64,000 nt of DNA from Escherichia phage arall, in sequence record MN850584.1; one strand, written 5' to 3'. The notes below the pieces were generated by a model. It ran no database searches, had not been told where the DNA came from, and saw only the letters and a program-made list of their open reading frames with translations. Below, in pieces: positions 111-53,754 of the stretch (positions are counted from its first letter, which is position 1; each line of letters begins with the position of its first letter). Made by a program: the position numbers and the translations under genes.

Positions 111-133
111 ACCCGCTTCGGCGGGTTTTCTTG
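111..133 (+). terminator. Rho-independent terminator (ACCCGC-TTCG-GCGGGT + TTTCTT)
   Basis: GC stem with tetraloop followed by T-run; identical copy at 25028-25049. Confidence 0.75.
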
Positions 134-166
134 CATTAATGCCAGATTTAATAAGAGGAGTAGTAG

Positions 167-1360
167 ATGGCAGCACCAAAATCATGGGAACAATATAAAG
201 AAGAGTGTCAACCTATTGCGAATAATAAAGGGATTGAGATCCTAGGATATGTTGAACCGTTTATAGGTTGTGATACGAAAATGATTCTACGCTGTAGGCA
301 GGAACATGAATGGAAGACTTGTAGTATTAGTAATTTCAAGCACGGTAACAGTTGTCCTATCTGTTCTGGTAAGAAGCCGTTAACATGGGAAACAGAATTG
401 CCGATCTTGGAAGAGATAGCACAGAAGAAGGGGTATCAGGTGTTAGGGTACGTTGGAGAATGGAAAGGGAATAAAACAAAACTTGATTTGTTGTGCCATT
501 GTGGGAATAGATGGCAAAGTACAGCAATTCATCAATTTAAAGGCGGTCGAGGTTGTCCACAATGTAGGGGGGAGAATACAAGGAAGGCACTAACAATGTC
601 CGACGATCAACATATTGCAGATTTCTTTTCTACAGGGAAATTTAAGGAAGGCACTATCTTCACTAACACAGGAACACGGAGTAAAGGATGCAGGCATAGT
701 ATCTGGATGGTTGAATGTCCTGTTTGCTCTCATGATGAATATGTTCAAGCAGGTGTTTGTGATGGTAAATTTTACTCTGAAGGAAATAACCTTAAACGAG
801 GGTGCATTCCGTGTCGTTGTGGGAACTATCGGTATACAGAAGACCAGATCACCTATAGGGTAAAAAAGGAAGTAGAAGGGCAAGGGTATGTCTGGGTAGG
901 TTGGATCGGTAAACCGTCTAGAAGTCACGGTAAGTTTAAATATCTTTGTCTTGTGCATGGGGAACAGACAGGGAGGGCTAATAACTTATTAAGCCTCGGT
1001 CAAGGTTGTCCACAGTGTGCTGGTCATAATCAACAGCAATTATATATTAATATTGTTAAAGATAATGATATTATAGTGGCTCTTAAGTTTGGTATAGCTA
1101 AAGATAGTGATAGGCGATTAAATAGTCAAAATAGTTGTAATATGTTTTTTATGGAGCGTATTTGTTTATATGATTTTAGCACAGTGAAACAATGTAAGGC
1201 TGCTGAAAGAGCTATAAAGAAAAAATTAAAAACTGGTATTTTAACGGAAAGAGAGTTGAAAGACGGTTATACAGAAACAGTAAGTGTTTCTGATTTGGAA
1301 AATCTTCAAGAAATTATTACACAACATGGTGGCAAATTAGTATATAATAAGGAGATGTAA
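167..1360 (+). CDS. Cys-rich repeat protein with C-terminal T5orf172/GIY-YIG-like domain (putative homing-endonuclease-like)
   Basis: RBS AGGAG upstream; three ~55-aa modules each ending GCPQC/SCPIC with upstream CxC/CH pairs; C-terminal LYINIV...KFGIAKD...RRL pattern resembles T5orf172/MUG113 fold; motif recall only. Confidence 0.55.
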   Translation: MAAPKSWEQYKEECQPIANNKGIEILGYVEPFIGCDTKMILRCRQEHEWKTCSISNFKHGNSCPICSGKKPLTWETELPILEEIAQKKGYQVLGYVGEWKGNKTKLDLLCHCGNRWQSTAIHQFKGGRGCPQCRGENTRKALTMSDDQHIADFFSTGKFKEGTIFTNTGTRSKGCRHSIWMVECPVCSHDEYVQAGVCDGKFYSEGNNLKRGCIPCRCGNYRYTEDQITYRVKKEVEGQGYVWVGWIGKPSRSHGKFKYLCLVHGEQTGRANNLLSLGQGCPQCAGHNQQQLYINIVKDNDIIVALKFGIAKDSDRRLNSQNSCNMFFMERICLYDFSTVKQCKAAERAIKKKLKTGILTERELKDGYTETVSVSDLENLQEIITQHGGKLVYNKEM

Positions 1361-1912
1361 ATGCGGATTACTGATAAGTATGTGTTCTTCTTTTCGGCAA
1401 AAGATGAATTTAGCAACTGGTATCTATCATCTTTTATTGAACCTTTAGCTCCCAAGTATAATAATTCTATCACAAGTTCTGTCGAATTTACTTGTGTGGA
1501 ACAATATATGATGTGGAGAAAAGCATGTTTGTTTTATGATTACAATATTGCATCTTCTATTTTAACCGGAGATCTAAGATATACAGGAGAAAAAGAACAA
1601 GCATATTATAAGCGACTAGGTAGATTAGTTAAAGATTATGATGAAGACACCTGGACTTCTTTACGGGAGAAGATTGTCAAACGTGGTTTGTATCTTAAAT
1701 ACACACAAAATGAAGATCTCAAAAATAAACTTATTGCTTACGCAGATAAGGAGTTCGTAGAGGCAAGCCCTTATGATTCTATTTATGGTATCAAAATGGG
1801 GATGTGGGATCGGGACGTGGAAAATAAGGATTGTTGGAAAGGACAAAATCTTTTAGGAAAATGGCATACAGACCTTGCTGTTTATCTAAAAACACAATCT
1901 GATATTTCCTGA
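1361..1912 (+). CDS. NADAR (YbiA/DUF1768)-family protein, putative ADP-ribose-processing hydrolase
   Basis: Start overlaps previous stop (TAAATG); N-terminal FFFSAKDEFSNW and internal EQYMMWRKA, ASPYDSIYGIKMG, GQNLLGKWH match NADAR/YbiA conserved blocks. Confidence 0.7.
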   Translation: MRITDKYVFFFSAKDEFSNWYLSSFIEPLAPKYNNSITSSVEFTCVEQYMMWRKACLFYDYNIASSILTGDLRYTGEKEQAYYKRLGRLVKDYDEDTWTSLREKIVKRGLYLKYTQNEDLKNKLIAYADKEFVEASPYDSIYGIKMGMWDRDVENKDCWKGQNLLGKWHTDLAVYLKTQSDIS

Positions 1913-2130
1913 TATTTTGAAAATTTTTATTTTTATAAAAAGGGGTGTGGTTTCATGTACGGAAATCCACCCTCTGAATAATATATCCAGAGTAAATATT
2001 ATTCTGTACTCTGTTAATAAAGTATTTAATTTGTTTGTTGGACTATGGTATCTGATCTTTAAAAGGTATACTATCTCTTAACTACTACTTATAACAGAAC
2101 AGTAAAATCATTTTTATAAAAAGGATAAAA

Positions 2131-2327
2131 TTATTTAAAGTTTTTACAGATTTTTGGATACAAATTTTGAAAATGAAAAGTTCAAGTTTGGTCAAAATTA
2201 TTTAAAGTTTTTGTACGTATTTCTATCCAGATTTTGAAAATGAAAACTTCAATTTTTTAAAAATTCCCCAGTTTATTTAAAGTTTTTTTGCCTTTTTCCG
2301 TAGAAAAATCAAAAATGAAAAGTTCAA
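2131..2327. repeat. Three direct repeats (~55 bp units: TTATTTAAAGTTTTT...TTTTGAAAATGAAAAGTTCAA)
   Basis: Units start at 2131, 2208 and 2273; each ends with TTGAA-N9-TTCAA inverted motif. Confidence 0.8.
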
Positions 2328-2352
2328 TTTCGTGTTTTTATGGGTGTGCGGA

Positions 2353-2409
2353 TGATAATCATTCTCACTAAGAGAATGAGAATCATTAGCAAATGAGAAT
2401 TTTTCTCAT
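2353..2409. promoter_or_regulatory. Cluster of GATAAT/GAGAAT palindromes (TGATAATCATTCTC; GAGAATGAGAATCATT; ATGAGAA-TTT-TTCTCAT)
   Basis: Perfect 7-3-7 inverted repeat at 2393-2409 plus overlapping dyads; same TGATAATCATTCT motif recurs at 12237, 12295, 13148. Confidence 0.6.
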
Positions 2410-2672
2410 TTAGAGAATAACGCGCAGGGGTGGTGTTTGTCTCGCGCTCCCGTGTCCCCTCGCCATACAATAAGAATAGCATAACCAACAACAAAAGCAA
2501 GCGATTATTTTTATCTTTACATTTCTTTACAAATTTATTTTAGACGAGCTACCGGCGATCAACCTTCCAACCAGTGCCCCCTGGTATGTTAGCCCCGCCT
2601 TTACGCCGTGGGGGTGGCGTTTCCTCTTCTGTATGTAAAACAGTATAAGCCCGATCCCTGGGCTTGTCAAGA

Positions 2673-2939
2673 TTATTTTTTGTTTTCTTGCCAGGATAGG
2701 ACACCTAACCAAAAATACATGTCGCCCCGCGCCCCTGGCGGGATCTTGCTTTCCCCGCCGCCACTGCAAGCCCATAGATAACCATTTACGAACGTATCAA
2801 AGTGATCTATCTCTTCCACCTTATGATTGCCCAGGTTGAGAACGGTTTCAACCTTTAAGCCCGTTGCGCTTGCTACCTGGTGCACCGTGCCGCCTTGCCA
2901 GCCCAATGAGTGCATGAGGTGTAAAGTAGTATTTGTCAT
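2673..2939 (-). CDS. Hypothetical protein in GC-rich island
   Basis: 88-aa ORF (MTNTTLHLMHSLGWQGGTVHQV...) with upstream minus-strand promoter-like TTGCTA-17-TATTAT and AAAGGG RBS; local GC clearly higher than flanks. Confidence 0.4.
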   Translation of the reverse strand: MTNTTLHLMHSLGWQGGTVHQVASATGLKVETVLNLGNHKVEEIDHFDTFVNGYLWACSGGGESKIPPGARGDMYFWLGVLSWQENKK

Positions 2940-2985
2940 GGTATCGCCCTTTCTTTGATGTGCGCCCTGGTTGGCGCGGTAGAAA

Positions 2986-3015
2986 GATAATAGCCCTTTC
3001 CTTTATAGATAGCAA
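2986..3015 (-). promoter_or_regulatory. Sigma70-like promoter (TTGCTA-17-TATTAT) for 2673..2939
   Basis: Consensus-like hexamers on minus strand, divergent from + strand promoter at 3056. Confidence 0.4.
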
Positions 3016-3055
3016 GCAAAAAAAAAGAAATGAAAAAAAGATTAAAAAAAAGGGG

Positions 3056-3084
3056 TTGACGTTCCTCACCTGGTAGCGTATTAT
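3056..3084 (+). promoter_or_regulatory. Sigma70-like promoter (TTGACG-17-TATTAT)
   Basis: Hexamers with 17-nt spacer; divergent partner of minus promoter. Confidence 0.45.
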
Positions 3085-3211
3085 TCATCTTGTCGAGGGG
3101 GGCGAGGCACAACGACAATAAACAAAAGGAGGGCGCAATGTAGGACGGGCAAAGGTGAGGATCTCCATAATCCACCGTCACAATAACATTACTTATAAAA
3201 GGTTGATAACG

Positions 3212-3307
3212 ATGATCAAGAAAGAAAACAGCTTGACGGTTGGAACGATTAACGCTATCATTCTAGCCGTTCCATTTTGGGTTGTAGTAGCGGTTATTAT
3301 CTTTTAA
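3212..3307 (+). CDS. Small hydrophobic peptide (31 aa, MIKKENSLTVGTINAIILAVPFWVVVAVIIF)
   Basis: ATG with AAAGG upstream, single predicted TM helix. Confidence 0.3.
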   Translation: MIKKENSLTVGTINAIILAVPFWVVVAVIIF

Positions 3308-3315
3308 AAATATTC

Positions 3316-3371
3316 TTGACAACGTTTTTTAATCTGATAAGATGTATCACATAGGGCGGCAATAGTGCCGC
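3316..3371 (+). promoter_or_regulatory. Early promoter cassette: TTGACA-16-TAAGAT + 5' hairpin GCGGCA-ATAG-TGCCGC
   Basis: Conserved module CAC-ATAGGGCGG-hairpin then AACAGAAGAGA leader and ATG at 3396. Confidence 0.7.
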
Positions 3372-3395
3372 TCATAACAGAAGAGAGAAATAATC

Positions 3396-3668
3396 ATGGC
3401 ATCATATAGCGCATCAATGATCGTAATGGGTATCACTGGTAAACCTATGCGCGGTGGCGGATCTTTCGCTAACATCAATATTGATGGGCGTTTATCCCTG
3501 GATGCAGCGATCACCGTGGCACGGGAAACATTTAAAAAAGAATGTAATTTCAATAAACAAGATTATCTCGGTTTCGCTATTGAAAAAACCGCGCGCTTTG
3601 TTGATTATAAAAGCCCGAAAATGGTTGATACTACACTAAAAGCGCAAGATGTAGCATTTTTGCTTTAA
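3396..3668 (+). CDS. Hypothetical early protein (90 aa)
   Basis: ORF directly downstream of promoter-hairpin cassette with A/G-rich RBS. Confidence 0.6.
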   Translation: MASYSASMIVMGITGKPMRGGGSFANINIDGRLSLDAAITVARETFKKECNFNKQDYLGFAIEKTARFVDYKSPKMVDTTLKAQDVAFLL

Positions 3669-3671
3669 GGC

Positions 3672-3732
3672 TTGACACTGAAAAATAATTTGGTAATATA
3701 TACTACATAGGGCGGGGAAATGGTTTCCCGCC
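3672..3732 (+). promoter_or_regulatory. Early promoter cassette: TTGACA-16-TAATAT + hairpin GCGGGGAAA-TGG-TTTCCCGC
   Basis: Same module as 3316. Confidence 0.7.
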
Positions 3733-3754
3733 AAATCAAAGAAAGGGTAACACA

Positions 3755-6096: not shown

Positions 6097-6155
6097 TTGA
6101 CAACGTTTTAAATTAGTGTAAGATATATCACATAAGGCGGGAAATGGTTTCCCGC
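6097..6155 (+). promoter_or_regulatory. Early promoter cassette: TTGACA-16-TAAGAT + hairpin GCGGGAAA-TGG-TTTCCCGC
   Basis: Module. Confidence 0.7.
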
Positions 6156-6178
6156 CAAATCAAAGAAAGGTTATAATT

Positions 6179-6415: not shown

Positions 6416-6471
6416 TTGACACGGGAAAGAAAAAGAGTAAACTGTATTACATAGGGCGGCAATAGTGCCGC
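6416..6471 (+). promoter_or_regulatory. Early promoter cassette: TTGACA-16-TAAACT + hairpin GCGGCA-ATAG-TGCCGC
   Basis: Near-identical to cassette at 3316. Confidence 0.7.
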
Positions 6472-6981: not shown

Positions 6982-7039
6982 TTGACAGTAGCATCATTTA
7001 TAAGTAAAGTAACAACAACGGCGGGAAATGGTTTCCCGC
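6982..7039 (+). promoter_or_regulatory. Early promoter cassette: TTGACA-17-TAAAGT + hairpin GCGGGAAA-TGG-TTTCCCGC
   Basis: Module. Confidence 0.7.
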
Positions 7040-7060
7040 CATCAATAAAGAGATAAAATC

Positions 7061-7573: not shown

Positions 7574-7580
7574 CAAAAAA

Positions 7581-7603
7581 GGGCGCAATAAGCGCCCTTT
7601 TAG
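7581..7603 (+). terminator. Rho-independent terminator (GGGCGC-AATAA-GCGCCC + TTTT)
   Basis: GC stem + T-run. Confidence 0.7.
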
Positions 7604-9288: not shown

Positions 9289-9350
9289 TTGACAGCACAC
9301 CTAACAGATAGTATATTGTATCTCATAGAGCGGGGAAATGGTTTCCCCGC
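9289..9350 (+). promoter_or_regulatory. Early promoter cassette: TTGACA-17-TATATT + hairpin GCGGGGAAA-TGG-TTTCCCCGC
   Basis: Module. Confidence 0.7.
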
Positions 9351-9656: not shown

Positions 9657-9716
9657 TTGACACTAGGCAAACAACGTAGTAAAGTTTATCACATAGGGCG
9701 GGAAATGGTTTCCCGC
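9657..9716 (+). promoter_or_regulatory. Early promoter cassette: TTGACA-17-TAAAGT + hairpin GCGGGAAA-TGG-TTTCCCGC
   Basis: Module. Confidence 0.7.
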
Positions 9717-10594: not shown

Positions 10595-10672
10595 CTGATG
10601 CAGCTAAATTAATGCCATCGGTGCATGCTTACATTGGTGAAGATAATTTGATTTATATTGAATAAAAAGTAT

Positions 10673-10729
10673 TGACACCGATCCCCAATATGTTATTATT
10701 TACCACGTAAGCGGGAAATGGTTTCCCGC
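10673..10729 (+). promoter_or_regulatory. Early promoter cassette: TTGACA-16-TATTAT + hairpin GCGGGAAA-TGG-TTTCCCGC
   Basis: Module. Confidence 0.7.
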
Positions 10730-10753
10730 TAGGTAATCAAAAAGGTAAATACT

Positions 10754-11159: not shown

Positions 11160-11184
11160 GGGGCGCACTAAGCGCCCTTTTTTG
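11160..11184 (+). terminator. Rho-independent terminator (GGGCGC-ACTAA-GCGCCC + TTTTTT)
   Basis: GC stem + T-run. Confidence 0.8.
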
Positions 11185-11987: not shown

Positions 11988-12003
11988 ATAACATTCCATA
12001 CAA

Positions 12004-12029
12004 GGGCGCACAAAGCGCCCTTTCTTTTT
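12004..12029 (+). terminator. Rho-independent terminator (GGGCGC-ACAAA-GCGCCC + TTTCTTTTT)
   Basis: GC stem + T-run. Confidence 0.8.
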
Positions 12030-12117
12030 ACCTCAATAAAGATGATAGCTTTTACCTATCAAAAACGTTCACCGAAAAAAGTGAATAGATCGCGGTATCG
12101 AGCTAATCAAGGAGCAG

Positions 12118-12258
12118 ATGAATAACCATACCATGAAGATCATAAGGCGCTTACAACGTGTTTTAGACCGCTTATTTTTAATTTCTTCATGCAACTATCT
12201 GGCAAAAACAGCCTTTTTCTTGTCTTTCCTCTTAAATGATAATCATTCTTATTTATAG
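12118..12258 (+). CDS. Possible small ORF (46 aa)
   Basis: Good RBS AAGGAGCAG-ATG but lies in otherwise non-coding AT-rich region. Confidence 0.3.
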   Translation: MNNHTMKIIRRLQRVLDRLFLISSCNYLAKTAFFLSFLLNDNHSYL

Positions 12259-12698
12259 CTGATTATTTATGCAATAAACTGCATAATTCAATAATGATAA
12301 TCATTCTTAACTTATGACCATCTAACCTATAAAATAATAAGTTATCTAACTAAATTAAAACTAATTATCTTACTTTTATTTATAACTTACTGTTACTATC
12401 TCATTGATAACCTTATATTAAACAACAATAACTAATATAAATCATTACTAAGCTAACTATAATCTATCTAACCCTTAAAACTACAACTATAATCTATCGA
12501 ATTGTTGCACAAAGTAACTATTAAATTGTTAGTAACATTGCTAAATAATTAATATCCTATCTATTTATGATCTAATCTTTACCTTCCTATTTATTACCTA
12601 ACTAATCATTTCATACAGTAATCATTGCATACAGTAACTATGACAAGAAATATAATTCGCAAGCGTATCATTAGCAGCCTATGCCGGACACATAGGCG

Positions 12699-12845
12699 GC
12701 TAATATTAACGCAACTACACACCCCACATAATAACCATCGGTGATGGTTATTATTTGTGTTTATGTAGCTTGCAACAATTGCAAGCGCAACAATATACAT
12801 GGTATATTGTATTCCCTTACATTGTTGCGGTGCGTTAATATTAGC
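12699..12845. repeat. Nested inverted-repeat complex
   Basis: Outer 15-bp IR GCTAATATTAACGCA (12699-12713) / TGCGTTAATATTAGC (12831-12845); inner perfect palindromes ATAACCATC-GGT-GATGGTTAT (12731-12751), CTTGCAA-CAA-TTGCAAG (12769-12785), CAATATAC-ATG-GTATATTG (12791-12809), IR CGCAACAAT/ATTGTTGCG. Confidence 0.85.
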
Positions 12846-13147
12846 TAATGTTTAGAACATTGGCTATAATATAAGCTGCATATAATAAGCTATACAATAA
12901 TAAACATGGTGAATAATGACCCTGATGATCATAATGCGCCACCCTCCAGGGGGCGCTATGTGTACACAAAAAATCTTTCTTGTCAAGAAAATATTAACAC
13001 TATTGCGCAAAATTATTTACAACTGAATAGATGATTTTTCATACTATTGCCCCTATAACATACCTCATTTGTTGAGCCTACTTTCTTAAAAGCGCAATAA
13101 ATCAGAATTATCTTGATTTTTAGGGCGTTTTATAGTATAGAAAATAT

Positions 13148-13166
13148 GCAAATGATAATCATTATC
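13148..13166. promoter_or_regulatory. Fur-box-like 19-mer GCAAATGATAATCATTATC
   Basis: 17/19 match to recalled E. coli Fur consensus GATAATGATAATCATTATC. Confidence 0.4.
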
Positions 13167-13332
13167 AGCTATCTTCCACGGGTGGCACTATTTCACGCCA
13201 GATCATTTCATTTGGCAAGGTGTATATAGATGTTTAGACTTGCCAAGCCATTGATTTACTTAGAATTTATCTGTTTTGTTGTGAGTAGTACCTTTCTTGC
13301 TTAGAAAATAATCAAAAGTCTTATAAGTCATT

Positions 13333-13365
13333 GAATGATAATGCAAATGATAATTATTCTCATTG
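13333..13365. promoter_or_regulatory. GATAAT-repeat element (GAATGATAATGCAAATGATAATTATTCTCATTG)
   Basis: Two GATAAT hexamers plus ATTCTCATT half-site shared with 2353-2409 cluster. Confidence 0.4.
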
Positions 13366-13809
13366 ATATTTGAGGGGGACGGTCGGCAGAAATCGGGGGG
13401 CGCTGAAAATCGCGTTAAGCACCTCTCGCAAGCGAGCAGTGTTTTGCGGCAAGTTATTGATATTATTGACTTTACGCTTATGAAAAGGGGGTGTGTCGAA
13501 ATAAATCGGGTATACCGGAAAATTTTTGTGGCATAGATATTTATTTGTCTATATTATGTACAAAGGGGTGTATTAAAAATAATAGGTATATATAGAATAA
13601 TTGATAGGGAAATCCTATACTAAATCCTTCATTAATGATGTTCCTATGTTGCTGTTCTTGTAACAGATGAAAAGACGCTATATGATGTGTGGCATGAGAC
13701 GTAAATTTATAAGATGCAAATAATGCTTGCATTGAATAGAAATGTCTATACACTGTGTTTCATAAGATATGCAATATCGCGCATAACAAACTACTAATGA
13801 GAGGTGTAA

Positions 13810-14127
13810 ATGAGAACCTTAGCTTTGTATATTGATCCTCACTCCATTCGAGAAATGCGAGATGTACAACAGGATTACGAATTCTACCCAGAAATTTGTG
13901 AACGCTATGAAACTATTCTTAGTTCTGTAGAAGATCCAGATACTAGTGAAACAGGTGCTTCCCACTTACTGTGGATGTTGAATGAAATTCAGGATGTGTG
14001 TAATGGTATGTCTGAAACCAAACACCATCGTTGGCTAGGCTATATTCAGGGTGTTATGGTTATGAAAAACCTTATTACAGTGAACGATGAACGTAATGCT
14101 ACACGCCCCGTCTTTAATGGAGCATAA
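13810..14127 (+). CDS. Hypothetical protein (105 aa)
   Basis: First ORF of co-directional array; RBS GAGG. Confidence 0.55.
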   Translation: MRTLALYIDPHSIREMRDVQQDYEFYPEICERYETILSSVEDPDTSETGASHLLWMLNEIQDVCNGMSETKHHRWLGYIQGVMVMKNLITVNDERNATRPVFNGA

Positions 14128-24696: not shown

Positions 24697-25020
24697 ATGC
24701 AAAAAATAAACACTGGTTCTCGTCCTAAACAGAAGCAAACAAAAGCAAGGGTATCTTATGTTGACAACTCTTGTTATAATTTCAAAAATGTTAAAGAAGT
24801 TATCATTGATGAAAAAGAAGGTTTGATTCACATTTCATCTGAACGTTTGAAAGGTAGTGTTACTCTTCGTGAGAATGTATCTATACCTATGAAAGTTGTG
24901 GCTACACTCTGTGTTGATAAACCAGATGTTGTTAACTACTATGTGTTCCGTGATAGTTGTATTTCATTACATAATAAGATTTTTAAATCTTCGCACGTTA
25001 AAACAAAACACATTGTATAA
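24697..25020 (+). CDS. Hypothetical protein (107 aa)
   Basis: RBS AAGGAAAGCT. Confidence 0.6.
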   Translation: MQKINTGSRPKQKQTKARVSYVDNSCYNFKNVKEVIIDEKEGLIHISSERLKGSVTLRENVSIPMKVVATLCVDKPDVVNYYVFRDSCISLHNKIFKSSHVKTKHIV

Positions 25021-25027
25021 CACATAA

Positions 25028-25049
25028 ACCCGCTTCGGCGGGTTTTCTT
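25028..25049 (+). terminator. Rho-independent terminator, identical to 111-133
   Basis: ACCCGC-TTCG-GCGGGT + TTTCTTG. Confidence 0.75.
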
Positions 25050-25094
25050 GTATGTGTGTTTTTATTTGTCTTAGCATAAACAATAGGAGGTATT

Positions 25095-25316
25095 ATGTCT
25101 GTAGTTGTAGAAGGTAGTATTGGTTTCTTAGTAGATAACCCTCACCCTTTCGTGGTTAAGGTTCATATTCAAGAAAAGGTAAGCAACAATACGTGGTTGT
25201 GCTTGTTAGATAGTAAGATACACTCTTATACAGAGGTTTATCTTCACACTTGGCAAATTGGTACGATAACAGCAGAGGATGAATTGATAATTGAACTATA
25301 TGAACGAGATCTGTAG
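25095..25316 (+). CDS. Hypothetical protein (73 aa)
   Basis: RBS AGGAGGT. Confidence 0.55.
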   Translation: MSVVVEGSIGFLVDNPHPFVVKVHIQEKVSNNTWLCLLDSKIHSYTEVYLHTWQIGTITAEDELIIELYERDL

Positions 25317-25396
25317 ATGACTTTATTAGAGAGTATCGTAGTGTTAATCATCTTTATCATTGTTGTCATAGGATATTTTACAGAAGACTAAAATAA

Positions 25397-25429
25397 AGCC
25401 CCTAGAATCGCTTCTAGGGGCTTTTGTTT
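25397..25429. terminator. Bidirectional terminator hairpin (11-bp stem AGCCCCTAGAA/TTCTAGGGGCT) at convergence of + and - blocks
   Basis: Long perfect stem, T-runs on both sides. Confidence 0.7.
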
Positions 25430-25491: not shown

Positions 25492-25749
25492 TTAAGAATG
25501 CATAAAATCTTCTTCAGGGCAGGTTGAGAGATAAGAGATGCACGTTGGGACAACAACAACATTATCTTTAAGGTTTGCAACCAAGCCTTTTGTGATTCCA
25601 GCCACTGCCCCGTTAATATCTGCTTGACGGATACCAAAACCTTGTTGTGCGGATAGATAACAAAATCCCTCACCTTTCTGTTGATTATTATTGAAGTAAT
25701 AAACGTAGTGCATCATAAAATGGTCTTTAACGATTTGTTCTGTGGTCAT
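25492..25749 (-). CDS. Hypothetical protein (85 aa)
   Basis: RBS AGGAGA; last gene of minus block. Confidence 0.5.
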   Translation of the reverse strand: MTTEQIVKDHFMMHYVYYFNNNQQKGEGFCYLSAQQGFGIRQADINGAVAGITKGLVANLKDNVVVVPTCISYLSTCPEEDFMHS

Positions 25750-25760
25750 AATATTCTCCT

Positions 25761-25785
25761 ATAAGAAAAGGGGCTTTCGCCCCTT
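25761..25785 (-). terminator. Hairpin AAAGGGGC-TTTC-GCCCCTT, one of three identical copies
   Basis: GC stem with flanking T/A runs; same 20-mer at 37056 and 50147. Confidence 0.6.
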
Positions 25786-25792
25786 GGTCAAG

Positions 25793-26605
25793 TTACTTAG
25801 TCAAATGATCTTCTATCATTTTTATGAAAGCAGGATTGCTAAAAGCATCTGCTGCCTTTTCTCTGTAAACAAAGACTCCTCTATCTTCGTAAAGAAGAGT
25901 TTCTTCGTAATTAATTCCTGGGTTAACAACAATCATTTTTGTACCCATATTAAGTGCAGGGAATAATTCCCAATTAAAATTGATAACTTGGTTTGAACAT
26001 CCTACTACAACAACCAAATCTTGCATGGTCAAAGTATCAAACAAGTGAGCCATATCTGCATACAAAGGTGCAGCCTCACCAAAAAATACAACATTAGGCT
26101 TCACCCAGTTATAATCATCTATGTTTATACTATTGTAACCAATATCTACCAGTGTTTTGTAATCTCCAGGATGCATACGGTAAACTACTTCAGGAAGATA
26201 CCCGTGCACGTGAATAACAGAATCCCTGTCCACACCTGCTCGCTCTAGTAGATCATCAACGTTTGTTGTCAAGTTTACTACTTGGTTAGGATATTCCTTA
26301 AACCACTTTGCTATTTGAATATGTGCAGCATTAGGTTGTACATCTTTAAGCTCAACACGTCTTTTGTTATAAAATTCGTGTGTTTTGGCATACAAGTCCA
26401 TACCGTTCTCGTCTACACCACCGACCACTGGAAGATCTGGAGATGTTCTCACACGATAACCTGCTTGGAAAGCTCCAATATCGCAGACCTCTTCTAAGTC
26501 ATATTCTTCCCATAAGGCACGACCACTATCTGTGTCTGTTCGGAACGTTCGAATCCCACTGTCTGCACTTAAACCTGCGCCACTAACAAAAATTACTCTT
26601 CGCAT
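25793..26605 (-). CDS. Sir2 (sirtuin)-family protein, Zn-ribbon-less
   Basis: GAGLSADSGIRTFR (sirtuin GAGxSxxSGIPxFR), TTNVDDL (TQNID), HVHG catalytic His, VVFFGE; no Cys4 Zn module; RBS AAGAGGA. Confidence 0.8.
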   Translation of the reverse strand: MRRVIFVSGAGLSADSGIRTFRTDTDSGRALWEEYDLEEVCDIGAFQAGYRVRTSPDLPVVGGVDENGMDLYAKTHEFYNKRRVELKDVQPNAAHIQIAKWFKEYPNQVVNLTTNVDDLLERAGVDRDSVIHVHGYLPEVVYRMHPGDYKTLVDIGYNSINIDDYNWVKPNVVFFGEAAPLYADMAHLFDTLTMQDLVVVVGCSNQVINFNWELFPALNMGTKMIVVNPGINYEETLLYEDRGVFVYREKAADAFSNPAFIKMIEDHLTK

Positions 26606-26616
26606 TCAATATCCTC

Positions 26617-27162
26617 TTAGTAATCATCATCCCAAGAAGATGCGTCGTAACGCTCTTCCTCTTCGAAATCCCAATTAATTTCTACTCCAAAATCTAAAAA
26701 CAATTTAACAATGTTTTCTGTAGAGTAGTATTTATCATAAGCATTAGCTAGTTCCCAATACTTGTCACTCAATTTTTTATATTTAGGATCATTATAGTCA
26801 TAATCTACTTTATAACCATAATCATACATCTCTTGTTTAGCTTTAAGCATAGCTTCTGGTGTAAGAAGATTAGGGAACGGACGATTTCTTTCTTTTAACT
26901 TAGAAGCAATCCAGTTTGCAACATTCGCCACTTCACCATCTCGATTATCACCTAAACAACTTGCATAATCTCCATCTTCGTAAGTGCCTAAATCCCCACA
27001 GACCACATGTACAATACTTGAATACGATCCACACGTTTCACAATCTGAAAAAGTGTCTACTGTTGTAATATCAATAGATAAAACTGGTAAAGCCATAGCT
27101 TCTTTCACACAAGCCTCCTCATATAATAACATATCATCAAAACCCATATATCCTCCACACAA
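26617..27162 (-). CDS. Highly acidic, Tyr/Asp-rich hypothetical protein (181 aa)
   Basis: ORF in operon; composition only. Confidence 0.55.
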   Translation of the reverse strand: MCGGYMGFDDMLLYEEACVKEAMALPVLSIDITTVDTFSDCETCGSYSSIVHVVCGDLGTYEDGDYASCLGDNRDGEVANVANWIASKLKERNRPFPNLLTPEAMLKAKQEMYDYGYKVDYDYNDPKYKKLSDKYWELANAYDKYYSTENIVKLFLDFGVEINWDFEEEERYDASSWDDDY

Positions 27163-27164
27163 AT

Positions 27165-27185
27165 AAAGCCCCTGATTGGGGCTTT
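27165..27185 (-). terminator. Intergenic hairpin AAAGCCCC-TGATT-GGGGCTTT (weak terminator/attenuator)
   Basis: 8-bp GC stem; poor T-run. Confidence 0.4.
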
Positions 27186-27201
27186 GGTTAAGTTTTATGG
27201 A

Positions 27202-27813
27202 TTATACCAGACTTTTAAGGTACTTGTCAAGGGCTTCTTGATCACCTTGACAAACATAGCAACGGAAGTCTTGAGCAGAAGGTTCTTTGTCCTCGTCCCA
27301 ATCCCAATAAACAGTACCTTTATAACGTGAACCTGGGAACTCGAAATATGCCACATGAGTAATATGGTGTGGGCCACCCCAAAATTCTGTAAAAGTAAAT
27401 TGAGGATACGCTGCTTTAACTGTATTCTCAAACCAAGTTTTACGATCTAATGCTTCGTTTATAAAATAAGCATGGCGTTCCATTTCATCCCAATCTTTCC
27501 AAACGCATTTTTCATCCAGAGAAAAAACAAAATCTTCACTGTTAAAATCGTCTGTATCTGATTCCAAAATATCATAATCATGTGCACTAGGTATCCACCA
27601 TCCAGCTTCTAATAGTGCTTTTGCAGGTACAAAACCTTTTTCAGCATATTGATCAAATTCTTTTACTCTACGTACAGTGCAGTATTCATCTTCACCACCA
27701 ATGTCCAGCAGACAAGCACCTTTGCGTCTTGCTGCAAGACCATGTGTATCAAAAACTACAACACTACCTTCACCATCTTCACGATCTACTTGATATGCAA
27801 CTTTTTGAGTCAT
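27202..27813 (-). CDS. Hypothetical protein (203 aa)
   Basis: ORF with ATG; no recognised motifs. Confidence 0.55.
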   Translation of the reverse strand: MTQKVAYQVDREDGEGSVVVFDTHGLAARRKGACLLDIGGEDEYCTVRRVKEFDQYAEKGFVPAKALLEAGWWIPSAHDYDILESDTDDFNSEDFVFSLDEKCVWKDWDEMERHAYFINEALDRKTWFENTVKAAYPQFTFTEFWGGPHHITHVAYFEFPGSRYKGTVYWDWDEDKEPSAQDFRCYVCQGDQEALDKYLKSLV

Positions 27814-27814
27814 A

Positions 27815-27952
27815 TTACCCCCAATGTATATGGGAAATTAACCAAAAGATAAATTCCCAAAAACACCAACCAAGAAAAGTTAATGGAATTATAAAAGCTA
27901 TCAGAGCAGTCTTCCAGCCTTTCCACAATGTTTCCACTATTCCTCCATACAT
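27815..27952 (-). CDS. Possible small membrane protein (45 aa) filling Dcm-27813 gap
   Basis: Hydrophobic ORF exactly spanning intergenic gap; weak RBS. Confidence 0.3.
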   Translation of the reverse strand: MYGGIVETLWKGWKTALIAFIIPLTFLGWCFWEFIFWLISHIHWG

Positions 27953-28926
27953 TTAAGAATATGTGCAATGACAGGTATAGTCCAACCGTTGCCTAACATC
28001 TTATATGCTTGTGTGTTACTACTCACTTTAAAGTAATCATCTGGAACACCTTGTAAGCGGCAACACTCTTTAACCGTTAACTTTCTGTAATGTACGCCTT
28101 CACTCAATTTTTCAAAGGCATCTAGATATCTTCCAGGTGGAATGTAAGCTAATAGTACGTCTTTCGGCACAGTCGTGAGGCAACGAGTTTTTTCACTGTC
28201 CTGAACTTCCAAACAATGTACCAAACGATCAGTTTTAGATGTACTACGTTTGCCATTCTCATTAATTCTACGCCCATATATTGCTGCCGGATAAAAAACC
28301 AGTTGTCTGCGACTCTTTTCAAAATACTGTTCTATATTACCACCTTTGGCATAATTTGCATCTATGCAATAAGCCTTATCTCTGTCTACAATACTATCAT
28401 CTTCAATAATATCTTGCAACACTTCATTGGTAATCTCCCAGGGTTTTATTTCCCAGTTGCACCAGTATAAACGTTGTCTATTCTGTGCCGTGAAATCTGC
28501 GGAGTTAATGAATACGGGATCAACACCTAAGTAACTTGTGATCACGTTTTCCCACTCCACTTTCATCTTAACGTTTTCAAGCATGAACTTAACATTAGGA
28601 TTAAACTTTTTAATATGTTCAAGAATTTCAACATATTCGAAGAATAGCTTAGATCGCGGATCTTGAAAGTTCAAACCCTTACCAGAAGAAGAGAAGCCTT
28701 GACACGGACTACCACCTAACAAAAGATCAATTTCTCCCCACGGGATATCCCATTCTCTCCATTTTGTAACATCACCTAACTGAATAATATCTGGAAAATT
28801 TGCTTGGCTTTCAGCTATGGCAAATTTGTCTAATTCTGAAGCATAATATGTATCTACTTCAATACCTGCACTTTTTAGCGCAAGCATTCCTCCTGACATA
28901 CCATCAAAAAGACTTAAAACTTTCAT
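27937..28926 (-). CDS. DNA (cytosine-5)-methyltransferase
   Basis: Motif I LFDGMSGG, motif IV GSPCQGFS, motif VI ENV, C-terminal NGWTIPV-like block. Confidence 0.85.
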   Translation of the reverse strand: MKVLSLFDGMSGGMLALKSAGIEVDTYYASELDKFAIAESQANFPDIIQLGDVTKWREWDIPWGEIDLLLGGSPCQGFSSSGKGLNFQDPRSKLFFEYVEILEHIKKFNPNVKFMLENVKMKVEWENVITSYLGVDPVFINSADFTAQNRQRLYWCNWEIKPWEITNEVLQDIIEDDSIVDRDKAYCIDANYAKGGNIEQYFEKSRRQLVFYPAAIYGRRINENGKRSTSKTDRLVHCLEVQDSEKTRCLTTVPKDVLLAYIPPGRYLDAFEKLSEGVHYRKLTVKECCRLQGVPDDYFKVSSNTQAYKMLGNGWTIPVIAHILKCMEE

Positions 28927-29396: not shown

Positions 29397-29424
29397 ACAA
29401 AAAACCCGCCGAAGCGGGTTTATA
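29397..29424 (-). terminator. Terminator hairpin AACCCGC-CGAA-GCGGGTT with T-run on minus strand, followed by TTGACA
   Basis: Variant of 111-133 family; internal terminator/promoter junction in minus block. Confidence 0.6.
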
Positions 29425-29682
29425 TTATTCTACAGGAACTTCTTCACCAAGAGAAACTTCTAAACGGAATGCTTTACTTTCAATACACTCACTACCTTTT
29501 AGAAAATCAAATTGCACTATAGACTGACTTAATAGGATAGATAGAATCACATCACAATCTTCACTAGGAGCTAGATGTTTGTATTCTTCCTTCAAGGTAA
29601 CATCATAAAAACATAAATCCCCTACTCCTAGTTCATCCCATCCTTCCCACGCATCTACAAAGTTAAACTCTAAACCTTTCAT
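29425..29682 (-). CDS. Hypothetical protein (85 aa)
   Basis: ORF. Confidence 0.5.
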   Translation of the reverse strand: MKGLEFNFVDAWEGWDELGVGDLCFYDVTLKEEYKHLAPSEDCDVILSILLSQSIVQFDFLKGSECIESKAFRLEVSLGEEVPVE

Positions 29683-35064: not shown

Positions 35065-35105
35065 ATCTCCTCCTAATAAACCCCCTTGAGGGGGTTTGTG
35101 TTAGA

Positions 35106-37055: not shown

Positions 37056-37078
37056 AAAGGGGCTTTCGCCCCTTTGTT
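37056..37078. terminator. Hairpin AAAGGGGC-TTTC-GCCCCTTT (copy 2 of 3), bidirectional-type
   Basis: Between lysozyme stop and phoH start. Confidence 0.6.
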
Positions 37079-43745: not shown

Positions 43746-43769
43746 TAAGAAAGGGGGACAAAGCCCCCT
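43746..43769 (-). terminator. Hairpin AGGGGG-N6-CCCCCT + TTTCTT after nrdA
   Basis: GC stem, T-run on minus strand. Confidence 0.55.
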
Positions 43770-50131: not shown

Positions 50132-50146
50132 AAATCCTCCAAAAAT

Positions 50147-50170
50147 AAAGGGGCTTTCGCCCCTTTTTAT
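50147..50170. terminator. Hairpin AAAGGGGC-TTTC-GCCCCTTTTT (copy 3 of 3), bidirectional-type
   Basis: GC stem flanked by T/A runs on both strands. Confidence 0.6.
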
Positions 50171-51132
50171 TAAATTCCAATAACAGTGTTTACACGCTTC
50201 TCTTTGCTACGCAAATTAACACGTCCACGAGACAGGCTATTACATGATGTGCATCTTAGCACTTGGAATGTACTAACCGCTGTTGTGTAAACCTTACCAG
50301 GAACAACTTCAAGGTGCTCTTTACCGCAACGAGGACAACGAAGTTTTTCATCGTCATAGAATGCAGATACGTTAGGATGTTGTGGAATCCATGCACGAAG
50401 TTTGATGTAAAGATCTCTAAGAGAAACAACATCACCATCATTGTATGTTTGCATACGGAAGAAGGCATGTCTATCTCCTTCACAACATGCTTTCCACAAA
50501 GGAAAACCTTCATTATCAAGTTTAAAGTTTTCTGTATCAAAATACAAACACATTTCTTTAAGCGCATTAGAAGGTAGTGCAAACTGCTTCTTAGCTGCCT
50601 TGAGTGTATCAATTACAACATAATGTGATGGTGGCTCCATACCGTGAAAAGCAAAACGTTGGTTAATATAAGCCTTATCAAACTTAATACCATTGTGCGC
50701 GATCACAATATCTGCATCGTCAAGTAAGTGCCAGAGATCTTGACATAATTCCCAATCATCTGTATGATCTATGTCAAACAAAGGGTAATTGCTAAGGTTC
50801 TTACCTTCTACTTCCCCTGTTTCTAAATCAGCAGATGAATAGGAAAGCAAGTAACCTCGACGAATAACTTGTTCAGGTGCAATAAAGGCTTTGAAACGTG
50901 AGAAGCTATACACAATCTCCGGTGCTGTCTCTACGTCAATAATTTTAATTACTGGCCCACCTTTATCTTGCGGAGCACCGCGATGTGGTGAATTTACACG
51001 AGCTAAGTAATCATTTACTGTGCTCTTCTTAGTAGAACTTCCCAACACCTCTTGTGCAATCTTACGCGAAGAATAACCTTGTGCTTTCATAGATACAATC
51101 AAGGCTTTCTGTTCGTCTGTTAATTTACTCAA
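50170..51132 (-). CDS. DEDD-type 3'-5' exonuclease with N-terminal HTH and C-terminal Zn-ribbon
   Basis: IIDVETAP (Exo I), IAHNGIKFD (Exo II), CPRCG...CTSCN. Confidence 0.6.
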   Translation of the reverse strand: MSKLTDEQKALIVSMKAQGYSSRKIAQEVLGSSTKKSTVNDYLARVNSPHRGAPQDKGGPVIKIIDVETAPEIVYSFSRFKAFIAPEQVIRRGYLLSYSSADLETGEVEGKNLSNYPLFDIDHTDDWELCQDLWHLLDDADIVIAHNGIKFDKAYINQRFAFHGMEPPSHYVVIDTLKAAKKQFALPSNALKEMCLYFDTENFKLDNEGFPLWKACCEGDRHAFFRMQTYNDGDVVSLRDLYIKLRAWIPQHPNVSAFYDDEKLRCPRCGKEHLEVVPGKVYTTAVSTFQVLRCTSCNSLSRGRVNLRSKEKRVNTVIGI

Positions 51133-52163
51133 TGTTCCTCCTGCTCTGAAATATATGCTTGTAGCATACTTTCAAAAGTTGTTTCATCATTCGCCCAACG
51201 TTTCATATATACCAACTGAAAAATTGTCTCTATCCATTCGTCAGTTGTCATCTCTACTTCTTCACCATCCCAAGAAGTAAATTTAACGCCATCTGGGAAC
51301 CATTCATAATACTGATCTTTAACTGTCTGAAAAAGTTCAGCCTGTGTTTTACATTTGGAAATAAGATTAAAGCAAGTAATATCTCCAAACTTAACATCGA
51401 AATCTTGGTAAGGTCGAATACTATCTGTCTTATCGCCCATTAGCATTTGATAAGCTAACCAGTAACTACCCCAACCCTTAACTTCTTTTTTCTTACCTTT
51501 TTCTACGATCCAGATATCACCAATAGATTCATCAATCAGAATAACACAAGGATTTTTATAAACACCATCCTCTTTATAAAAGTTAAAGAGTAAACTTGGT
51601 GTGTGTAAGCTATCTTTGTCGATAGATGCTACAATATGAGAAAACTTACCAGTTTCCTTGTAGGCTTTATACCCTGCATATCCATAGATTTCTAAAGCAT
51701 CATCTGCCTCAATACCAGTAACAACGTCACCGTTATGTTTTTCAACTAGATAATCTTTAGTATCTGATAATTGGATTGGTCTTAAATCTGATCGCTCTGA
51801 TTTATATTCTTTTGGCATTTTGAAAGAATGCCGGAAGGTTTTTCCTACCCCGATGACACCGCAATACTTTTGAAGTTTTAGGTGATCCACCATCTGGGTT
51901 ATTTTTGTCTTTGCAGCTTGAAACGTAAAAGAAATATTCTCTGGGACTATTTGAACATCTTTTATTTCAAAATCTTCTTTGGAGAACAACTTCTTACCAG
52001 CAGCTTCGCGTTGCGCGTTAAGTGCTCCTAACCATCCTCCAATATTTTTTGAAGATTTACCCCAAAAATCTGTTCTTGTTTCAAACTCTTTTACATTACC
52101 GGAAGCCTTGTGTACAGCGTGGATTTTTCTTTGTTCTAAAGCTGAAGACGCTTGGAACGCCAC
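51129..52163 (-). CDS. FEN-type 5'-3' exonuclease/flap endonuclease
   Basis: GIEADDALEIYGY (GxEADD), LMGDKTDSIRP (H3TH-like). Confidence 0.65.
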   Translation of the reverse strand: MAFQASSALEQRKIHAVHKASGNVKEFETRTDFWGKSSKNIGGWLGALNAQREAAGKKLFSKEDFEIKDVQIVPENISFTFQAAKTKITQMVDHLKLQKYCGVIGVGKTFRHSFKMPKEYKSERSDLRPIQLSDTKDYLVEKHNGDVVTGIEADDALEIYGYAGYKAYKETGKFSHIVASIDKDSLHTPSLLFNFYKEDGVYKNPCVILIDESIGDIWIVEKGKKKEVKGWGSYWLAYQMLMGDKTDSIRPYQDFDVKFGDITCFNLISKCKTQAELFQTVKDQYYEWFPDGVKFTSWDGEEVEMTTDEWIETIFQLVYMKRWANDETTFESMLQAYISEQEEH

Positions 52164-52255
52164 TTGATCGTAGTCTATTGCAAGAATTGTGTTCTCGTCA
52201 ACATATTTGTGCAGGTCTTCCGGTTGGATTAAAATGTAACCGCTAATATTACCTC

Positions 52256-52468
52256 CTATTCATCATCTGAACTCTCTGTTGAGAATGTTCGTGTGTAGGG
52301 ACACTGACGACTTGCAGAAACCTCTATAACCTTGTCGTACATACCGTTAGAGTAAAAACAGTATTTTGTACTTCCAGAAACTTGTTCTCCAGAATTAATT
52401 AAAGTTATTTGACCAGCATAAGAATAAGAACTGATTACTAAAAGTAAACCGACAAGAAGTTTTTTCAT
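52256..52468 (-). CDS. Small secreted protein (signal peptide MKKLLVGLLLVISSYSYA)
   Basis: n-h-c signal peptide, 70 aa. Confidence 0.55.
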   Translation of the reverse strand: MKKLLVGLLLVISSYSYAGQITLINSGEQVSGSTKYCFYSNGMYDKVIEVSASRQCPYTRTFSTESSDDE

Positions 52469-52543
52469 TGGTGTGTCTCCTTAAAAGCCCACCTAACTAA
52501 GTAGGTAGGCATATTAACACATATTAAATTAGTAAGTCAAGTA

Positions 52544-53428
52544 TTATTTTTGAATAGTTGACTTAATAAGGTCTTGCATAATACCACGGATTTCATTAAA
52601 GCACAGAAGGACAGATGCTTCAAAAGATCCTTCTTCATCGTTAAAGTATTTAGGGAATTTAATACCACTCAACTTAAATTCTTTATCAACAATAAAGTTA
52701 ACGAAACCGTCATATTCCAGGCCAATGGCAACAACGTGCTTACCATCTTCCATAAGTTCTACTGCACGAGATTCATAAAGGGATTCTTTACTCCATACAA
52801 CCACACCTTCAGAATCTTCAAGTTTAATATAATTACCAAGGGTCAGTCGTTCAGCCTCATGTTCTTCTAAGATGGTATCAAAACCTTTAATAATGGCTTC
52901 TTCGTGTACACTAAACGGCAGAACTGGGAAAGTACCCAACACCTCACGAAGAAACACAGCAATATCTTCACTAATTTTCTTAGTACCATTAAGAACGTAG
53001 GTAATACTGTTCTCAGTGTCTACAACAACATAGTTATAGAAATCATCTGCCTCTGTTTCTGGGAGCAGAGAAAACACGATATCAGCCTCAATTGCTTTTT
53101 TACTTTCTTTATCCAAGAAGAATTCTTTAGTAGGATTTGCAGCAATAAACTCTTGTTCCATCTCTTGGAGTTTTTCATTAAGAATGCGTTTAACTTTTTT
53201 CTTGTTAACTTTCTTAACAGATTGCCCTACTTTAATAACCTCTAAACCAGAGAACACTTTTACATAGGAACCATCATCTTCAAAACGAACAAGACCAATG
53301 GTATGTGCTTGTTGACCCTGTGCCACAACAAAATCCAGCGGTTTGTCTGTTACTGTGTTCAGTGCGGAAATAGACAGACCATCACCAGAAATCAGGGTTA
53401 CGCAAGATTTGAAATTTTTAGCAAACAT
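52544..53428 (-). CDS. RdgC-like recombination-associated protein
   Basis: LGTFPVLPFS vs recalled RdgC LGSLPVVPLS, SLLP block, C-terminal similarity; ~300 aa. Confidence 0.5.
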   Translation of the reverse strand: MFAKNFKSCVTLISGDGLSISALNTVTDKPLDFVVAQGQQAHTIGLVRFEDDGSYVKVFSGLEVIKVGQSVKKVNKKKVKRILNEKLQEMEQEFIAANPTKEFFLDKESKKAIEADIVFSLLPETEADDFYNYVVVDTENSITYVLNGTKKISEDIAVFLREVLGTFPVLPFSVHEEAIIKGFDTILEEHEAERLTLGNYIKLEDSEGVVVWSKESLYESRAVELMEDGKHVVAIGLEYDGFVNFIVDKEFKLSGIKFPKYFNDEEGSFEASVLLCFNEIRGIMQDLIKSTIQK

Positions 53429-53438
53429 AGTTTTCTCC

Positions 53439-53717
53439 TCAAATAATAACTACAAAATATTTTACACCATCATATTCGACAATATGATCAGGATATTTAA
53501 ATCCTTTATAAGATTTACCAAACAGACTAACAGCCTCATTAGCTTTGTTTTGCGGATTACTCAGCCACTGTTCTTCTGTGTAAAACTTAAACTCTGTTCT
53601 CTTACCTTCTTTTTCTAAACCAACAATTTCCTGTGTGATATCTTCAATACCTGCATTCTTCAAGGATTTGATTACCTGACGCAAACCGTGTTTAAAGATA
53701 TCTTCTGCTGTTAACAT
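53439..53717 (-). CDS. Hypothetical protein (92 aa)
   Basis: ORF. Confidence 0.5.
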   Translation of the reverse strand: MLTAEDIFKHGLRQVIKSLKNAGIEDITQEIVGLEKEGKRTEFKFYTEEQWLSNPQNKANEAVSLFGKSYKGFKYPDHIVEYDGVKYFVVII

Positions 53718-53730
53718 AATACCTCCAATA

Positions 53731-53754
53731 AGCCCCCGAAGGGGCTTTATTTCT
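53731..53754. terminator. Hairpin AGCCCC-CGAA-GGGGCT + TTATTTCTT
   Basis: GC stem; T-run is on + strand though flanking genes are on -. Confidence 0.45.

Follow-up and report, generated by a model that had tools for sequence, protein, structure and literature searches.

The 64,000-nucleotide stretch of Escherichia phage arall analyzed here (MN850584.1; the window below means this whole stretch) contains two families of short hairpins that recur exactly between its genes. We regard both as ordinary Rho-independent (intrinsic) terminators or attenuators for the host RNA polymerase, a reading to which we assign a probability of about 0.86. The feature is already known, in that terminators are annotated at the orthologous sites of close relatives. 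At 96-99% identity to Justusliebigvirus phages such as inny, Paula, muut and phi92, the window belongs with the phi92-like E. coli myophages of the subfamily Stephanstirmvirinae, and predicted rho-independent terminators are routine in descriptions of related phages such as rV5 (PMC3606486). An earlier note on this DNA had described the hairpins as two families, several of them bidirectional or oriented against the local genes, and had proposed roles for them beyond termination. Its overall reading is partly supported: these are indeed functional intergenic stem-loops of the terminator type, but neither the claim on orientation nor the notion of two families of elements survives the evidence given below.

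The exact repetition of both hairpins is borne out. The family 1 25-mer, AAACCCGCTTCGGCGGGTTTTCTTG, has two exact plus-strand copies, at 109-133 and 25026-25050, and a third copy on the minus strand at 29397-29421, which shows three mismatches in the tail with the 20-nt core unchanged. The family 2 19-mer, AAAGGGGCTTTCGCCCCTT, has three exact copies, at 25767, 37056 and 50147, and neither pattern found a match in 100 dinucleotide-preserving shuffles. The repeats thus exist as described, but the positions first assigned to them were off by 2 nt for the plus-strand copies of family 1 (111 and 25028) and by 6 nt for the first copy of family 2 (25761). A census of perfect G/C-rich stems in the window recovered 10 hairpins with a stem of at least 7 bp, at least five G/C pairs and a 4-nt loop, as against 0.03 in shuffles, and 40 hairpins with a stem of at least 6 bp, as against 5.6; 27 of these 40 are intergenic, although intergenic DNA makes up only about 20% of the window (p = 8e-11). 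The same census recovered the related GCCCC hairpins that had been listed alongside the two families (25395-25424, 27165-27185 and 53730-53747). All listed members are real, but the list omits the hairpins at 35078 and 43752, which belong to the same class, and is further incomplete in lacking a GGGCGC family (7577, 11161 and 12002) and about 12 promoter-linked hairpins between 3316 and 10730. No Rfam family matched anywhere in the whole 64-kb window at the gathering threshold.

Genes in the window run on the plus strand up to about 25390 and on the minus strand from about 25490 to about 60900. When the six core copies, i.e. the three of each family, are read on the strand of their genes, they display one common design comprised of an A-tract, five G/C pairs, an extra-stable tetraloop and a U-rich tail. 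In family 1 this takes the form AAA-CCCGC-UUCG-GCGGG-UUU(U)CUUG or UUUGUUG with a C(UUCG)G tetraloop; in family 2, which follows genes on the minus strand, it takes the form AA(A)-GGGGC-GAAA-GCCCC-UU(U), with a GNRA tetraloop closed by a C-G pair. The core stems are 7-9 bp long with five G/C pairs and 4-nt loops, their hairpin free energies (dG) range from -12.2 to -13.4 kcal/mol, U accounts for 5-7 of the 8 nt after the last G/C pair, and the 55-nt segments around them have folding z-scores of -2.6 to -4.6. All six copies begin 2-16 nt past a stop codon, in gaps between co-directional genes, and all are co-oriented with those genes. The supposed orientation against the local gene direction is hence mistaken, and arose because the plus strand was read inside a block of minus-strand genes.

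The first copy of family 1 (108..133, plus strand; RNA AAAACCCGC-UUCG-GCGGGUUUU-CUUG; site 109 below), an exact 25-mer, lies between a plus-strand open reading frame (ORF) ending near 92 and a gene at 167-1360; it has a 9-bp stem with a dG of -13.1, a tail with U at 6 of 8 positions and a folding z-score of -3.2. The second (25026..25050, plus strand; RNA AAACCCGC-UUCG-GCGGGUUU-UCUUG) begins 5 nt past the stop of the gene at 24697-25020, and stops 49 nt short of the gene at 25095-25316. The third (29397..29421, minus strand; RNA AAACCCGC-UUCG-GCGGGUUUUUUG; site 29402 below) begins 3 nt past the stop of the gene at 29425-29682. The spacers downstream of the family 1 sites measure 37-62 nt, and that of site 29402 holds, directly 3' of the hairpin, a promoter-like TTGACA-N17-TAAACT (29397-29369). 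At the family 2 sites, in turn, the GGAG of the next gene lies 5-8 nt past the hairpin and the start codon 15-18 nt away. The first of these (25768..25785, minus strand; RNA AAGGGGC-GAAA-GCCCCUU-UUCUUAUAGGAG) begins 7 nt past the stop of a gene for a Sir2-like protein, with the GGAG Shine-Dalgarno of the next gene 8 nt downstream. The second (37056..37075, minus strand; RNA AAAGGGGC-GAAA-GCCCCUUU-UAUAAGGAG) lies between genes for a lysozyme and a PhoH-like protein, and the third (50147..50166, minus strand; RNA AAAGGGGC-GAAA-GCCCCUUU-AUUUUUGGAGG) follows a gene encoding a DNA-polymerase exonuclease domain.

The identity and orientation of the loops bear on the level at which these hairpins act. 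On the sense strand the six core copies have UUCG three times and GAAA three times; together with the related hairpin at 53730, tetraloops of the UNCG and GNRA classes closed by a C-G pair occur as C(UUCG)G at 109, 25026, 29402 and 53730 and as C(GAAA)G at 25768, 37056 and 50147. In the complete genome of Paula (LR865361; 146,554 bp) the family 2 stem-loop occurs five times, always in the sense of the local genes, and the exact family 1 sequence twice. A count of the sense-strand loops of all its intergenic tetraloop hairpins between co-directional genes gave GAAA nine times, UUCG five times, GCAA and UCCG once each, and four others. GAAA or UUCG thus outnumbers the complementary TTTC or CGAA by 14 to 0 in Paula (p = 1.2e-4) and by 7 to 0 in the window, and the loops of more distant relatives (UUCG nine times, UACG twice, GAAA once) are likewise all in the sense orientation. 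As a DNA palindrome or a strand-neutral element would show no such bias, selection acts on the RNA. UUCG and GAAA tetraloops have precedents in mRNA hairpins of phage T4 and in rho-independent terminators, as documented in a passage of PMC3972237 that cites Tuerk 1988 and d'Aubenton Carafa 1990. Family 1 and the hairpin at 53730 (UUCG, closed by C-G) and family 2 (GAAA, closed by C-G) resemble these hairpins of T4 and E. coli, also in standing strictly in sense between the genes of a large lytic coliphage. The present phage differs in belonging to the Stephanstirmvirinae and not the Tevenvirinae.

Annotations of relatives point the same way. The GenBank record of Paula has terminators at eight of nine orthologous positions, several of them on both strands: 021/022, 008 and 003/004 at the three family 1 sites (109, 25026 and 29402, respectively), and 005, 001/002 and 042/043 at the three family 2 sites (25768, 37056 and 50147, respectively). 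The ortholog of site 109 in Paula has the loop UCCG, and hence is still a UNCG tetraloop. We extended the comparison across genera to the Phapecoctavirus Schickermooser (NC_048196) and to IMG/VR contigs (L006, L007 and L008) that encode a Sir2-like protein about 70% identical to that of the window. In the Schickermooser record terminators predicted by ARNold are annotated on the gene strand at the orthologs of six sites (25026, 25395, 25768, 27165, 29402 and 43752). The stem-loops of the family 1 sites 25026 and 29402 are identical in these relatives from other genera, that of 25026 at the orthologous sites of Schickermooser, L006 and L008, and the unit of terminator plus promoter at 29402 is retained in Schickermooser. 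The family 2 sites keep the GGGGC/GCCCC stem with GAAA, UUCG or UACG as the loop; thus, orthologs of 25768 have GAAA in L006 and L007, UACG in L008 and UUCG in Schickermooser, and the Schickermooser ortholog of 37056 reads GGGGC-UUCG-GCCCC. These comparisons indicate that position and predicted structure are conserved across genera while the sequence drifts, with the loops toggling among extra-stable tetraloops.

Beyond this phage group both sequences are commonplace. The 20-mer of family 1, AAACCCGCTTCGGCGGGTTT, has exact matches in the genomes of at least 120 bacterial species, with Pseudomonas, Serratia, Pantoea and Burkholderiales among the matches listed, and every one of the 5,426 complete E. 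coli genomes has near-matches to the 33-nt family 1 site, the median being eight places per genome. One example from E. coli, AAAACCCGCTTCGGCGGGTTTTGTTG, lies just 3' of a doc-family toxin gene at a convergent junction. The 20-mer of family 2 occurs in at least 120 IMG/VR contigs, and among the matches listed only four resemble the window over at least 200 bp; its 33-mer gave only weak full-length matches among those listed in E. coli genomes (E = 8), and these were not used as evidence. Among the matches listed, the copies outside the group have on average 3.8-4.5 T in the 6 nt after the 20-mer on the tetraloop-sense side. Within the window the copies match one another over the hairpin and 0-5 bases of the tail, outside which their flanks show no relation. 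The presence of the same 20-mers in unrelated genomes, together with the unrelated flanks, argues for convergence and against a single copied element. Both 20-mers are thus generic, and the two families appear to be the most frequent forms within a continuum of minimal terminators, arrived at by convergence. As families of elements they dissolve, given that the shared identity goes no further than the hairpin and a few tail bases and that the loops swap at orthologous sites.

In their G/C-rich stems of 5-9 bp, 4-nt loops, U-rich tails and position after stop codons, these hairpins match the intrinsic terminators that ARNold and TransTermHP recognize in E. coli and its phages, without material difference, save that some of the phage sites must be leaky, the next gene being too close for a promoter to fit in between. 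We infer both termination at these sites and its efficiency from the established account of how intrinsic terminators work. With the host polymerase paused on the U-tract, the hairpin would fold in the nascent RNA, and a part of the transcripts would be released. The family 2 sites would act as leaky attenuators, since the 5-8 nt to the Shine-Dalgarno leave no room for a promoter; termination there would be partial, and read-through would feed the next gene and set relative expression within the operon. Secondarily, the hairpin left at the 3' end would slow exonucleases and thereby shield the upstream mRNA. Exact repetition, on this model, would reflect convergence on a minimal design drawn from a very small sequence space, rather than the copying of a mobile or specialized element.

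Several observations weigh against this interpretation. A literature search found no transcriptome or mapped 3' ends for the Stephanstirmvirinae. The U-tract of the family 2 copy at 37056 is short and interrupted (UUUUAUAAGG). Three further hairpins, at 53730, 46747 and 48956, have the same arrangement of stop codon, hairpin and Shine-Dalgarno but no good U-tract, with only 4, 2 and 2 U, respectively, in the 8 nt of the sense tail. The architecture hence does not by itself make a hairpin a terminator, and termination does not account for the whole class; for these three, 3' protection or insulation of the adjacent Shine-Dalgarno is the better guess. At 27230-27201 (minus strand) a sigma-70 promoter-like site with 12 of 12 consensus positions (TTGACA-N18-TATAAT, with an upstream TG) immediately precedes the hairpin at 27165, an arrangement that looks self-defeating if the hairpin terminates efficiently. 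This promoter-like site overlaps the 3' end of the gene at 27202-27813 and would initiate about 9 nt before the hairpin. Finally, identical copies are more frequent than uniform choice predicts. A rough birthday estimate for about 16 tetraloop terminators drawn uniformly from 32-64 combinations of stem and loop yields about 2-4 identical pairs, whereas about 12 are seen in Paula, which has five copies of family 2. Some stems are clearly preferred, and occasional copy-correction may have contributed.

Among the alternatives, we consider it unlikely that the hairpins are bidirectional terminators whose key task is to stop antisense transcription. The earlier note was right that several sites have a bidirectional form: an upstream A-tract mirrors the T-tract, and 5-7 of the 8 nt of the antisense tail are T at 109, 25026, 29402, 37056 and 50147, as also at 25395 and 53730. 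At 25768, by contrast with these, only 3 of the 8 are T, and a U-tract on the opposite strand is lacking. Such A-tracts are a recognized mark of bidirectional terminators, but they may also just stabilize or insulate the hairpin of a unidirectional one (PMC12207403). Further points in favor of this explanation are that the antisense tail is the better one at 53730, that Paula has annotations on both strands at several sites, that 25395 is a real terminator of a convergent junction, and that several sites have symmetric A/T flanks like those of known bidirectional intrinsic terminators. However, convergent genes, from which transcription would arrive from both sides, are present only at 25395; elsewhere promoter-like sites do not exceed the shuffles. 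In the minus-strand gene block in particular we found 61 such sites, as against 66.7 expected from shuffles, and hence nothing there indicates antisense transcription. Moreover, the choice of loop is asymmetric and strictly favors the sense RNA in both the window and Paula, which is where selection is seen to act.

Marginally less likely again is the possibility that the hairpins serve mainly as stabilizers of mRNA 3' ends, as barriers to decay or as insulators that leave the nearby Shine-Dalgarno unstructured, with transcription reading through and the hairpin setting stable processed 3' ends. The compact layout of stop codon, 2-8 nt, hairpin, 5-8 nt and Shine-Dalgarno is in its favor, as the lack of room for a promoter at the family 2 sites requires read-through, and so are 53730, 46747 and 48956, which combine this architecture with only 2-4 U in the 8-nt tail. 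Yet a pure stabilizer has no need of the sense U-rich tail (5-7 of 8) seen in all six core copies, and copies of both 20-mers in unrelated genomes are, among the matches listed, also T-rich on the tetraloop-sense side. Nor is the proposal exclusive of termination, given that any terminator hairpin also protects the 3' end. Of the roles beyond termination that had been suggested, 3' protection is accordingly plausible for the three sites with a poor sense U-tract, but any terminator hairpin has it as a conventional side effect, and it is not a pointer to a new mechanism.

A different set of explanations places the hairpins in genome exchange. It is rather improbable that the terminator hairpins and the early cassettes described below act as micro-homology linkers, exchanging modules of gene plus terminator among Justusliebigvirus and Phapecoctavirus in the manner of the promoter-early stem-loop cassettes (PeSLs) of T4-type phages (PMC2839356, PMC4122927). 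The only hints for such linkers come from indels of the early region relative to Paula, which fall near cassettes, and from the Sir2-like gene. The latter together with its family 2 hairpin (25745-26607, minus strand) is 92% identical to Schickermooser, while its neighbors are about 70% identical or unalignable; this block may represent a recently exchanged module of gene plus terminator, with one boundary at the hairpin and Shine-Dalgarno. More improbable still is that families 1 and 2 themselves represent a repeated or mobile intergenic element in several copies, or PeSL-like recombination linkers, that spread in the genome and mediate the exchange of modules. Besides the Sir2 block, it draws on the exact identity of 19-25 nt at distant sites and on the excess of identical copies over uniform choice. 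Against it, the copies share nothing but the hairpin and 0-5 tail bases and sit in unrelated flanks, synteny of the sites extends over three genera and is seen in Paula, Schickermooser, L006 and L008, and the occurrence of the 20-mers in at least 120 bacterial species and at least 120 viral contigs is what convergence predicts. Furthermore, indel junctions relative to JohannJBalmer (27508/29632) and muut (26422/26624) are located within genes rather than at hairpins. The window resembles PeSL-bearing genomes in having short repeated regulatory sequences between small early genes and in the unit of terminator plus promoter at 29402, but families 1 and 2 do not sit within a larger conserved composite of some 100 bp, their identity extending over 19-25 nt, and among them and the related GCCCC hairpins a promoter-like site is adjacent to 29402 and 27165 alone. 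We therefore rejected for families 1 and 2 both a recombination linker, as the junctions relative to JohannJBalmer and muut fall within genes, and a mobile intergenic repeat of the REP or MITE type, as the sites are syntenic and have unrelated flanks.

We give hardly any credence to action at the level of DNA, whether as protein-binding palindromes or as cruciforms: perfect inverted repeats such as these stems would also be DNA palindromes, but this leaves unexplained the loop orientation in the mRNA sense, the variation of stem sequences among sites and orthologs with pairing kept, and the asymmetric T-rich tail, which fits a function in RNA. A processing site for RNase III, which requires roughly 20 bp or more of double-stranded RNA, was rejected because the stems of 7-9 bp, and of 13 bp at 25395, are too short.

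If the hairpins are intrinsic terminators, this phi92-like phage punctuates its operons with minimal UUCG- and GAAA-tetraloop terminators of a design common to its host and to many bacteria and phages. As a discovery this carries little weight; the sites are good candidates for use as short portable terminators, and they aid in delimiting transcription units in the annotation of this phage group. They also illustrate that exact intergenic repeats of about 20 nt can stem from convergence, and are not in themselves a sign of a mobile or specialized element.

The remaining hairpins of this kind vary around the same theme. The switch from plus- to minus-strand genes, a convergent junction, is marked by a bidirectional terminator (25395..25424, both strands; AAAGCCCCTAGAA-TCGC-TTCTAGGGGCTTT) with a stem of 13 bp, a dG of -20 to -21 and a tail with T at 7 of 8 positions on each strand; it corresponds to terminators 006/007 of Paula, while the junction in Schickermooser has an unrelated hairpin instead. 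Between the gene at 25095-25316 and this terminator, a possible unannotated ORF of 25 codons (25317-25392, plus strand; ATG...TAA, hydrophobic) was noticed by eye. The terminator-like hairpin at 27165..27185 (minus strand; AAAGCCCC-AAUCA-GGGGCUUU-AUUUGUG) has an ARNold annotation at the orthologous site of Schickermooser, where the stem has changed. The C(UUCG)G hairpin with the poor sense U-tract at 53730..53747 (minus strand; AAGCCCC-UUCG-GGGGCUU-AUUGGAGG) is the only site with a better T-tract in antisense (sense UUAUUGGAGG, antisense UUUAUUUCUU), its loop still being UUCG in sense; in Paula it corresponds to terminator_041, annotated solely on the strand opposite to the genes, with the loop UUCU. 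Two sites of the same class exhibit compensatory changes in the stem. The first (35078..35097, minus strand; AAACCCCC-UCAA-GGGGGUUU-AUUAGGAGG) has the orthologs AACCCCC-GCAA-GGGGGUU in Paula and UGCCCC-UUCG-GGGGCA in Schickermooser. The second (43752..43769, minus strand; AGGGGG-CUUUGU-CCCCCU-UUCUUAAGGAGG), between nrdA-like and nrdB-like genes, has the ARNold-annotated ortholog AGGGGC-UUCG-GCCCCU in Schickermooser. A third type of terminator is found in the early region on the plus strand (7577-7601, 11161-11177 and 12002-12022), with the form GGGCGC-AnnAA-GCGCCC, a 5-nt loop and A/T flanks; these hairpins, which constitute a repeat family of their own (D6), correspond to terminators 009, 011 and 014/015 of Paula.

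The early region also contains, between 3316 and 10730 on the plus strand, 12 repeated cassettes that combine a promoter with a hairpin, for example at 3316-3371, 3672-3735, 6097-6156, 6416-6471, 6982-7040, 9289-9350, 9657-9716 and 10672-10730. Each begins with an A/T-rich stretch and a consensus sigma-70 promoter (TTGACA-N16-18-TAnnnT), followed by a box of about 11 nt that resembles (T)ATCACATAGG, a stable hairpin, an A-rich spacer, a Shine-Dalgarno and the ATG of a small early gene. The hairpins are of the form GCGGGAAA-UGG-UUUCCCGC (in DNA, GCGGGAAA-TGG-TTTCCCGC), GCGGCA-AUAG-UGCCGC and variants thereof, and would begin about 5-7 nt into the transcript, i.e. in the 5' untranslated region. 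Paula has 14 such cassettes, all within the homologous early region and several of them labeled in its record as terminators in antisense to the genes, and the indels that distinguish the window from Paula lie at or near these cassettes. The cassette 19-mer GCGGGAAATGGTTTCCCGC is found in IMG/VR only in phi92-like contigs, apart from one match (contig L260) that we treated as chance, as its context is unrelated, GC-rich and coding-like. As composites of promoter and stem-loop the cassettes resemble the PeSLs of T4-type phages, from which they differ in having the stem-loop downstream of the -10 box. This lineage-specific family is more distinctive than families 1 and 2. Alignment of the 12 cassettes with MAFFT, followed by RNAalifold, placed their unequal stems out of register and retained only four pairs; the result was uninformative on covariation and was not used.

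Two further stretches of the early half attracted attention. At about 12030-13800 the window is AT-rich (GC content 0.33 at 12001-14000) and without a convincing ORF, and the homologous segment of Paula (27144-28851) has no annotated coding sequence. A 37-nt repeat is dispersed over three places in it (12916, 13146 and 13341), a 16-nt tandem repeat lies at 12603, and the stretch might represent an origin or another non-coding control region. At 2127-2331, in a gene-poor stretch between the plus-strand genes ending at 1912 and the early cassettes, an AT-rich repeat of about 67 bp is present in three tandem copies.

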